IMG/VR virus record: IMGVR_UViG_3300037419_001387
Length of the DNA: 62,853 bases
Origin: a virus
Reading direction: 5' to 3' (one strand)
The translations under genes were made by a program, and so were the position numbers. Numbering within the stretch: position 1 is the stretch's first letter; the number at the start of each line of letters is the position of its first letter. The notes under the pieces are model-generated. The model was not told the DNA's origin and did no database searches. It was given only the letters and a program-made list of their open reading frames with translations. Positions 5,720 through 6,238 of this stretch are shown here, one piece after another.

Positions 5720-5727
5720 GAAAAGGC

Positions 5728-5756
5728 TTGCAACCTCATCAACGCTGACTTACATT
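5728..5756 (+). promoter_or_regulatory. Candidate sigma70-type late promoter (PR'-like)
   Basis: TTGCAA (5728..5733), a 17-nt spacer, then TACATT (5751..5756). It opens a 520-nt non-coding, locally AT-richer region upstream of the lysis genes. Confidence 0.4.
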
Positions 5757-5832
5757 TCGTCCTGTCGCGTTGCGGCGTGGTGAATCTAAAAACCAGCCGC
5801 ACTGAAATACACCGCTAGACAGCTAGCGCACC

Positions 5833-5871
5833 GGGGCCGGGTTCCGCAAGGAGCTCGGCCCCTTCTGTTTT
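5833..5871 (+). terminator. Intrinsic terminator
   Basis: GGGGCCGGGTTC / GAGCTCGGCCCC forms a stem of about 12 bp with a 6-nt loop, followed by TTCTGTTTT. Confidence 0.7.
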
Positions 5872-5949
5872 GGCCGCGTGTGCTGCTTTGAGCACCGTCG
5901 TGATTCCAAGGTCGCGGCGAGCGAGGTTCAACTCCTTCCGCGGCCACCA
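5872..5949 (+). tRNA. tRNA-like cloverleaf with a non-canonical anticodon arm (CCA triplet in an 8-nt loop). May be an atypical tRNA, a pseudo-tRNA or a tRNA mimic.
   Basis: The 7-bp acceptor stem GGCCGCG/CGCGGCC is followed by A and an encoded CCA. T arm is GAGG-TTCAACT-CCTT. D arm is TGCT-GCTTTG-AGCA. The anticodon stem GTCGTGA/TCGCGGC (7 bp, 2 GU pairs) encloses the loop TTCCAAGG. Confidence 0.45.
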
Positions 5950-6171
5950 AGTCCCCAACGAATCCCCGACCGCTGACAGCCGGAGCAGGTGAAGGCACCC
6001 GGCAGATCGACTGGGGCCCGAGCTGCGCGTGGGCAAACCGCGGCCGCGGATTCTGGATTGCGGGCACGTCTCCTCGCACCTCCGTGCAACGCCCGGGGCA
6101 TTCCAAGGCCGCATCACCGATTGAGTCCAGACCCGACTATCAACTTCGCAGTTGCCGTCGGATCCTTGCCG

Positions 6172-6198
6172 CCCCGGCTTCGCGCCGGGGTCTTTTCT
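6172..6198 (+). terminator. Intrinsic terminator
   Basis: CCCCGGC-TTCGC-GCCGGGG (7 GC-rich bp) followed by TCTTTTCT. It lies 40 nt upstream of the first lysis-cassette ATG. Confidence 0.75.
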
Positions 6199-6238
6199 CC
6201 CGATCCACCGGGCCAGCGGCCCTGAAAGGCACGTGCCG

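Follow-up and report, generated by a model that had tools for sequence, protein, structure and literature searches.

A conserved leader with two terminators and a tRNA-like element ahead of the lysis genes of a lambdoid phage: a candidate late-operon control region

Setting and conservation of the leader

The DNA analysed here, IMG/VR virus record IMGVR_UViG_3300037419_001387, is a phage genome of about 62.8 kb with a GC content of 65%, and this whole stretch is referred to as the window; near-identical contigs are present in several metagenomes. The subject of this report is the leader at 5720..6238, which lies directly ahead of the lysis cassette and holds a putative late promoter, two intrinsic terminators (T1 and T2), a tRNA-like cloverleaf and a spacer. 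Genes for a tyrosine integrase (43442-44698) and a cI/S24-type repressor (57001-57843) are on the minus strand, and the early region runs rightward and wraps round to 1-5492 with PAPS-reductase/nin-type genes within it. The leader follows, and is succeeded on the plus strand by a gene for a membrane protein of 87 amino acids (aa; 6239..6502), a 383-aa endolysin gene (6499-7650) and Rz/Rz1-like genes. Beyond the lysis genes lie a papain-like peptidase gene, the small and large terminase genes, a P22-type portal gene and virion genes; the late operon behind the leader amounts to 36 kb. The order integrase and cI-like repressor, nin-type region, leader, lysis cassette, terminase and P22-type portal is lambdoid. 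The leader occupies exactly the position of lambda PR'-qut-tR', and the region is best read as a leader that controls the late operon in a temperate lambdoid phage of P22-like type.

Five full leaders, from the window and from contigs L013, L014, L031 and L032, were aligned over about 490 nucleotides (nt). L013 and L014, together with the partial matches L017 and L015, were reached through homologues of a 124-aa protein encoded at 5118-5492, while L031, L032 and the distant loci L033-L039 were reached through homologues of the product of 4711..5121, termed family A below. Across 5716-6201 the leaders of L013 and L014 have 76-77% nucleotide identity to that of the window. L017 shares only the promoter, the conserved block behind it and T1, and L015 shares only 6141-6238. 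A further 11 contigs carrying the window's own genes are uninformative because their leaders are identical. The leader is kept in four other phages although the flanking genes differ. Since the alignment gaps are mostly of 1-2 nt, with no common reading frame, the comparison indicates that the leader is non-coding and under selection; no conserved open reading frame (ORF) is found in 5720..6238, and in public annotation of the identical contigs no gene is called within 5493..6238. With the leader, the 196-aa and 124-aa proteins and one family A representative as queries, no match was obtained among 50,697 GenBank phages at the nucleotide or protein level. Exact patterns (a 22-mer and a 25-mer from the tRNA-like element and a 17-mer from behind the promoter) gave only chance matches in viral, genome and metagenome collections, namely one unrelated low-GC phage family, a Clostridia coding region and L019. 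Such a leader is absent from the holin/endolysin relatives L001 and L030.

Conservation was measured as the fraction of invariant columns per segment in the five leaders. It reaches 71% in the promoter with its upstream element GTAGGAAA, 70% in each of the initial-transcribed block, the 3' half of the tRNA-like element and the C-rich block that follows this element, 65% in GATCGAC-GGGGCCC and 75% in CTTCGCAGTTGCC, an element at 6144..6156 (plus strand) that directly precedes T2 and is also found in L015. It falls to 12% between the initial-transcribed block and T1, 15% in T1 itself, 12% at the apex of stem-loop A in the spacer and 3% downstream of T2.

The putative late promoter (5716..5756, plus strand) consists of GTAGGAAA at 5716-5723, a -35 hexamer TTGCAA at 5728-5733, a 17-nt spacer and a -10 hexamer TACATT at 5751-5756. 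It had been proposed by a first-pass annotation of this DNA as a sigma-70-type promoter, is present as described, and is conserved: all five leaders have CTTGCAA-N17-xACAAT with GTAGGAAA upstream, and among the -10 variants (TACATT, GACAAT and CACAAT) A2 and T6 are constant. At roughly +5 to +20 lies the block GCGTTGCGGCGTGGTG (5767..5782, plus strand), which occurs once in the window and is near-invariant in the window, L013, L014, L031, L032 and L017. It is missing from L015, whose upstream gene family differs. GCGTTGCGGCGTGGTG is a candidate regulator-loading or pause site. Its 5' part doubles as the 5' strand of stem-loop 1 (5771..5801, plus strand; TGCGGC at 5771-5776 and GCCGCA at 5796-5801, read from the sequences), and the 3' strand GCCGCA recurs at other distances in L013, with an 8-nt loop, and in L017. 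In L017, L033 and L038 the promoter overlaps or lies behind the upstream gene, and is followed by a stem-loop and a terminator.

T1 (5833..5871, plus strand) is a tR'-like terminator with a hairpin of 13 base pairs (bp) at 5833-5862 and a U-tract to 5871. It lies about 70-108 nt downstream of the promoter, and a short RNA ending at T1 would be about 105-110 nt long. T2 (6171..6200, plus strand) has an 8-bp GC hairpin at 6171-6191 and a U-tract, and ends about 40 nt before the first lysis gene. Both had been listed in the first-pass annotation, and both have counterparts in the homologues. In all five leaders a hairpin and U-tract stand at the place of T1, with energies of -18 to -30 kcal/mol and always abutting GGCCGCG; at the place of T2 every leader likewise has a hairpin and U-tract, with a stem sequence that differs by lineage, and L015 has another hairpin of different sequence at the same position. 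T1 and T2 are the top two plus-strand terminator-like sites in the first 20 kb of the window, where the remaining sites are at chance level. Because hairpin and U-tract persist while the stem sequences change, T1 and T2 appear to be conserved as structures rather than as sequences, which is the signature of real terminators.

Two other features of the T1 region were considered and set aside. On the minus strand, 5801-5889 matches the CPEB3 ribozyme model, of the hepatitis delta virus-like type, scoring 27.2 bits (E = 5.6e-5), below its threshold of 35. The match is composed of the reverse complement of the T1 hairpin and a small neighbouring hairpin, is not reproduced in L013, L014, L031 or L032, and has no P2 pairing evident by eye; it was put down to chance. 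Complementarity of the spacer to both strands of T1 was also rejected, as the strand order is wrong for a helix and the complementarity is not conserved.

The tRNA-like element and the spacer RNA

The tRNA-like cloverleaf (5872..5949, plus strand) begins one base past the T1 U-tract, an abutment that holds in all five leaders. It has a 7-bp acceptor stem (5872-5878/5939-5945), a D arm, a long 'anticodon' arm, a T arm with GGTTCAACTCC that agrees with the T-loop consensus, and an ACCA tail. The first-pass annotation had placed such an element here, and the segment does fold in this way (minimum free energy -38.4 kcal/mol, z about -3.4 to -3.7) and covaries across the five leaders. The pairing is kept in 97.2% of cells, compared with 38-58% when partners are slid; there is one compensatory pair in each of the D, anticodon and T stems, and the observed covariation was reached by 4 of 500 shuffles. 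Conservation is much stronger in the 3' half, which starts at the 'anticodon' loop, and for about 30 nt past its end, with 70% invariant columns versus 52% in the 5' half; identity to L013 is 95% in the 3' half and 65% in the 5' half. UUCCAAGG always lies within the 'anticodon' loop.

The cloverleaf departs from a standard tRNA in ways that bear on its function, and we weighed two further readings of it. In one, it is a functional tRNA whose anticodon loop is enlarged, such as a species that decodes quadruplets or suppresses frameshifts and is supplied for late translation. The acceptor and T arms, the encoded ACCA of the window and the conservation of the element across phages speak for it, as does a relaxed ARAGORN model with an 8-nt loop and the 4-base anticodon 'ccaa'. 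At an equivalent place the related phage L015 has a genuine tRNA-Gly(UCC) (7474-7551, 49.7 bits). However, instead of 7 nt the conserved stems enclose a loop of 10, 10, 11, 10 and 10 nt, a size that shifts with lineage and pairing. The D loop is 4-8 nt long, with no GG in the window or L032, a C-C mismatch interrupts the T stem, and the CCA tail is not conserved. ARAGORN at default settings calls no tRNA, and at the relaxed threshold the window yields five calls, with the random-sequence count reached one step lower. RF00005 gives no match and the window has no Rfam match at gathering level; the scores with the tRNA clan (CL00001; thresholds of 29 and 47) are 18.5 bits for the window and 23.1 bits for L031 to tRNA-Sec, whose threshold is 47. 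By its loop size, D loop and sub-threshold scores the element is not, judged from sequence, a standard tRNA, and the decoding role was rejected as very improbable. Still less credible is that the cloverleaf is an attP relic, its invariant 3' half being a host tRNA segment for site-specific recombination. Strong conservation of the 3' half is typical of attP cores in tRNA genes, as in P22 (PMC8022706), and here the 3' half with some 30 nt beyond is indeed far more conserved than the 5' half. Yet the integrase gene is 37 kb away with a tRNA-like fragment of its own beside it (42800-42872), the 22-nt core is not found in 185,579 representative bacterial genomes bar one unrelated coding match, the 5' half covaries with the 3' half, and integration at this site would sever the late operon from its promoter. 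Integrase distance, the lack of a host match to the core and the covariation of the two halves led us to reject this reading as well. The fragment at 42800-42872 (minus strand), which resembles tRNA-Ile(gat) in relaxed ARAGORN (ps90), lies in the interval from the late operon to int, and as in P22 it is probably here that the true attP region is located.

The cloverleaf is best seen as a phage tRNA derivative retained for a non-decoding role, probably descended from a phage tRNA-Gly(UCC) gene. The loop of L013 starts with CUUCCAA, which we take to be the loop sequence of tRNA-Gly(UCC). The anticodon arm of the tRNA-Gly(UCC) in L015 is itself odd: its final stem pair is a U-C mismatch, and C, not U, precedes the anticodon. 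As the U-tract ends at acceptor position -1 in every leader, an RNase P cut would give the same 3' end as termination at T1. Elsewhere, tRNA-like elements are among the signals for RNase P and RNase Z processing (PMC4919922). The mascRNA of MALAT1, the plant mitochondrial t-elements and the P1/P7 C4 precursor likewise hold a cloverleaf or minihelix inside a longer transcript, in which an RNase P cut would set the end of the neighbouring RNA (PMC4919922); the analogy suggests a processing role for the cloverleaf. These sequences and organisms are unrelated to the leader and the resemblance is a functional analogy only. The mascRNA-menRNA model gives a weak match to the acceptor and T arm (15.7 bits). 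In the distant loci L033 (3397-3450) and L038 (3608-3662) a hairpin of about 52 nt, with 9-13 bp and a bulge, directly follows the U-tract of the late terminator, at the position of the tRNA-like element, and might be its minihelix equivalent.

The stretch of about 220 nt between cloverleaf and T2 had been noted as unexplained. The sequence is there, but it can now be explained in part: a structure and covariance search found covarying local helices that belong to no Rfam family. With the structure derived from the same five sequences on which covariation was scored, RNAalifold gives local helices with 13 compensatory pairs, in which 88.9% of cells are paired compared with 35-47% for slid partners, and none of 500 shuffles reaches any of these measures. 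These patterns indicate that the spacer of about 210 nt is a covarying multi-helix structured RNA. Its first element (5952..6016, plus strand) is the invariant C-rich block TCCCCAACGAATCCCCGACCGCTGAC with stem-loop A at 5964-6016, whose base (CCCC/GGGG, CG/CG) is invariant and whose apical stem is variable and covarying. The second is a hairpin with an N-GGG-Y-AAA loop (6026..6042, plus strand; loop GGGCAAA at 6031-6037). The loop recurs on differing complementary stems in L013, L014, L031, L032, L033 and L038, and all four stem pairs covary, with a score of 0.717 versus 0.32 in shuffles (0 of 500). The third, helix X (6046..6112, plus strand), is a long irregular hairpin of the form GCGG ATTC TGGA... 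/ ...TCCA AGG CCGC with compensatory changes at five or more pairs in the RNAalifold helices. RNAalifold also put forward a long-range helix joining GCTGCG (6024) to CGCAG (6149), which we discarded as it does not hold in L032.

A covariance model built on 6005-6113 gives the five leaders 93-127 bits and has no convincing match elsewhere; among the distant family A leaders L033-L039 it finds no homologue, and only the GGGYAAA hairpin is shared. Rfam riboswitch, leader and antiterminator families are not represented at gathering level in the window and give no relevant sub-threshold match in the five leaders. The spacer model also has a weak match at 17396-17479 (21.7 bits, rough E = 0.02, GGGCGAA loop), at the end of or just beyond ORF 16007..17299, which is probably due to chance. 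A motif had been reported both in the cloverleaf loop region and further downstream, and ATTCCAAGGYCGC does occur at 5903 and 6100, two matches where 0.18 would be expected. GGCCGCG-N-TG likewise occurs twice, at 5872 and 6042. The downstream copy of ATTCCAAGG forms one strand of the long helix and the second copy of ATTCCAAGGCCGC is the 3' strand of helix X. The second motif copy is possibly the relic of an old duplication of the tRNA-like element.

Candidate regulators upstream of the leader

No recognisable Q protein had been seen in this genome, and none of the candidate genes matches a known Q family. The products of 4531/4711-5121, 5118-5492 and 5495-5719 have no Pfam, PHROG or PDB-sequence match and no significant fold match. 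The first-pass annotation had named 4711..5121 and the Cys/His-rich 5495..5719 as candidates by position, and the comparative data favour the former. The family A gene (4711..5121, plus strand) encodes 136 aa from a TTG start, or alternatively 196 aa from 4531. Its homologues lie zero to four genes upstream of every leader of this type, in L013, L014, L017, L031 and L032, and it is the sole upstream gene common to them. It is present in all six locus types that have the CTTGCAA promoter and the GCGTTGCGGCGTGG block, a small sample. In L015 and L018 an unrelated gene of 164-168 aa takes its place, and in L015 the promoter-proximal sequence differs too. This pattern indicates that family A is co-inherited with the promoter-proximal site. 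In the distant loci L033-L039 family A stands in the classical Q position. L033-L037 have, one after another, NinB, NinG, a 154-aa gene, family A, a gap of 318 nt that contains a promoter and a terminator, terminase and portal; in L038 and L039 family A is last in the nin region, before a gap of 659 nt.

Family A comprises 301 representative clusters at E <= 0.001, and all ten clusters looked up are unnamed or 'hypothetical'. Its predicted model has five helices (predicted local distance difference test, pLDDT, 75). The best fold match is the sigma-4 domain of SigL (probability 0.85, E = 1), and the others are uncharacterised phage proteins (E ~0.01) and weak matches named as transcriptional activator, sigma-70 region 4 or extracytoplasmic function (ECF) sigma. 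Family A is very likely a transcription factor tied to this promoter and is treated here as the candidate regulator; its co-occurrence with the leader is observed, and its regulatory role is inferred. Its assignment as an antiterminator follows from its position and from the two terminators only.

The remaining candidates were rejected. The 74-aa ORF 5495..5719 (plus strand; G+C of a coding-like 0.80 at third but a high 0.65 at second codon positions), which public gene finders leave uncalled, has no homologues and is not conserved with the leader, since unrelated genes fill its slot in related leaders; it is possibly a real small gene. Only its last eight or so codons align with the unrelated upstream gene of L013. 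Its TAG stop falls inside GTAGGAAA, and in all five leaders the upstream ORF ends at that TAG. The 124-aa protein (5118-5492), which many of these loci share, has an AlphaFold model (pLDDT 78) without a PDB match, survives in L031 only as a stump of 59 aa, is lacking from L032, and in L015 accompanies a different promoter-proximal sequence.

Two observations concern neighbouring genes. In L032 the slot immediately upstream of the leader (2630-2839) holds a gene for a 69-aa helix-turn-helix protein of KorA / sigma-70 region 4 type (E ~3e-6), which has no relation to what the other phages carry there. Contigs whose leaders are identical diverge at 4047-4714 (L002, L007 and L010 versus L003-L006), with gene calls of 154 aa and 196 aa in some contigs and of 209 aa and 136 aa in others. 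The first 60 or so residues of the 196-aa form resemble the C-terminus of a 214-aa protein of L014, and the differences look like a population frameshift or indel at the family A junction.

A model for late control and its alternatives

We propose that a transcript starts near 5763 from the sigma-70-type promoter at 5728-5756. In the absence of a late regulator RNA polymerase would halt at T1, yielding a short RNA of about 105 nt, with T2 in reserve as a second stop to hold the lysis genes off. In lytic growth the block would be lifted by a phage protein, most probably the one encoded at 4711..5121, that acts at the conserved promoter and initial-transcribed region and lets the polymerase pass through T1, T2 and the 36-kb late operon. 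The cloverleaf would most likely serve as an RNA-processing handle, with RNase P cutting exactly at the end of the T1 U-tract, and the helices downstream may act in cis on the transcript or on T2. We put the probability of the overall scheme, in which transcription from a conserved late promoter passes two terminators with the help of a factor encoded by 4711-5121, at roughly 60%.

To our knowledge, Q-type antitermination as described in textbooks involves a handful of protein families, all from enterobacterial phages. The first-pass annotation drew a parallel with lambda PR'-qut-6S RNA-tR', which is supported by the gene order, by the promoter with its initial block and by the conserved structures of T1 and T2; the candidate regulator shows no similarity to a known Q. 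As in lambda-type late control the leader is placed between the nin-type region and the lysis and terminase genes (PMC7547250; PMC8022706), has a sigma-70-like promoter with a strong intrinsic terminator about 100 nt on and a predicted short RNA, and has a small upstream gene, here the candidate regulator, that is co-inherited with the promoter-proximal sequence. Constitutive PR' promoters, short terminated RNAs (lambda 6S and StxS; phages 21, phi80, 82 and P22) and tRNA genes beyond tR' are documented (PMC7547250), and the Q proteins described fall into five or more unrelated sequence types (PMC8022706). In contrast to lambda, one to four unrelated genes lie between family A and the promoter in the window and five relatives, a second terminator and about 330 nt of conserved structured RNA lie behind tR', and a degenerate tRNA-like element is fused to the terminator. 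That the leader belongs to the Q/qut systems is partly supported: it shares their logic and position, but is not a proven member, as no upstream gene matches a known Q family, which is what defines these systems.

The tRNAs of Stx2 phages offer a second comparison. They lie downstream of tR' and before the late genes, with a promoter of their own (PMC7547250). A tRNA-type element past the late terminator and before the lysis genes is common to both systems, and in L015 it is a true tRNA-Gly(UCC). The element of the window is, however, non-standard, with its 10-11-nt loop, sub-threshold Rfam scores and absence from default ARAGORN output, and there is no room for a promoter of its own as the cloverleaf abuts the T1 U-tract. 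The HK022 put RNA and the N/nut boxB hairpins, which serve RNA-based processive antitermination, are also conserved stem-loops in nascent leader RNA upstream of a terminator; in put, two stem-loops work in cis on RNA polymerase with no protein factor. The N-GGG-Y-AAA hairpin resembles boxB in its fixed loop and covarying stem. It differs in that its loop is of 8 nt rather than a GNRA-like pentaloop, no boxA is recognisable and the element lies downstream of T1.

Several observations weigh against the proposed scheme. The promoter hexamers match the consensus at 8 of 12 positions, and our consensus scanner omits the site because it lists sites only from 9 of 12 upward. A conserved -10-like pause hexamer, the pause element of lambda-type leaders, is not evident in the initial transcribed region of the five leaders. 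No similarity of family A to known Q families could be detected, and its fold matches, to sigma region 4 and generic transcription regulators, are weak. The covariation is drawn from only five leaders, four of them independent. The CCA tail is encoded in the window only, and with a D loop that varies in size, recognition of the cloverleaf by RNase P is plausible but unproven.

Two other mechanisms share some of this evidence. As the weak fold matches of family A are to sigma region 4 and generic regulators, it may, instead of causing antitermination, act as a promoter-specific activator or sigma-like factor, with T1 and T2 as leaky attenuators or as the ends of small RNA genes. The SigL match, the viral proteins named as activators or sigma factors and the unusual conservation of the whole promoter region including GTAGGAAA agree with this, but all the fold matches are weak (E >= 0.01), a protein of about 130 aa falls short of a complete sigma factor, sigma-70 hexamers can be recognised in the promoter, and two strong terminators before a 36-kb operon are hard to square with activation alone; on balance we think it unlikely. 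The leader RNA, from the tRNA-like element to helix X, could instead regulate in cis, as a put-like antiterminator or as an attenuator or riboswitch-like switch on T2. In the switch version T2 would form when the 3' strand of helix X (CCGGGGC..) is held within helix X, and read-through would follow when it pairs with the 5' strand of T2. The covarying spacer with its invariant internal loops and the N-GGG-Y-AAA hairpin, kept even in distant family A phages, favour a role of this kind. In four of the five leaders the upstream sequence that pairs best with the 5' strand of T2 is the 3' strand of helix X, and in L013 the duplex (-25.6 kcal/mol) is stronger than the T2 hairpin itself (-14.9). The preference is clear in L013 and L014 only; the top partner is barely ahead in L031 and L032, the helix X strand ranks second in the window, and GC-rich CCGGGG motifs are common. 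As a sign that termination at T2 might be regulated, the pairing is weak. Moreover, no Rfam riboswitch or antiterminator family matches, a ligand or trigger cannot be named, and RNA downstream of T1 cannot account for read-through of T1. Regulation by the RNA itself is, like activation, a doubtful substitute for factor-dependent read-through by family A.

In its strongest form the proposal would make family A a new and widespread class of lambdoid late antiterminators that numbers about 300 clusters at 50% identity and has a loading site of its own, and would make the cloverleaf, multi-helix RNA and N-GGG-Y-AAA hairpin a new cis-acting RNA module that forms a second, RNA-based checkpoint on T2 and lysis timing. 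We regard this extension as speculative and rather improbable. The leader nevertheless provides a compact, testable case of a late switch from a high-GC, uncultured phage group, in which comparative data single out one candidate regulator, a member of a family that is sizeable and unannotated. The lambda model offers no explanation for what lies between the two terminators, namely the conserved tRNA-shaped element and the covarying RNA. Should these RNAs process the transcript or gate T2, they would add a new layer of control over lysis timing, and the tRNA-like element would also show a phage tRNA gene turned to a non-decoding role.

Some features of the surrounding genomes are of separate interest. 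Between the spanin genes and the small terminase gene lie a papain-family (Peptidase_C1) gene (8649-9413) and, at about 9415-9618, a 67-aa gene with a precomputed Pfam match to PF21825 'Sequestin'; the two are unusual as cargo for a lysis cassette. In L030 a large terminase of 810 aa (7651-10083) has Hint-domain matches, which suggests an intein. The late operon of the window is closed by a single ORF of 3499 aa (32267-42766), which recalls the giant virion proteins of Bcep22-like podophages.

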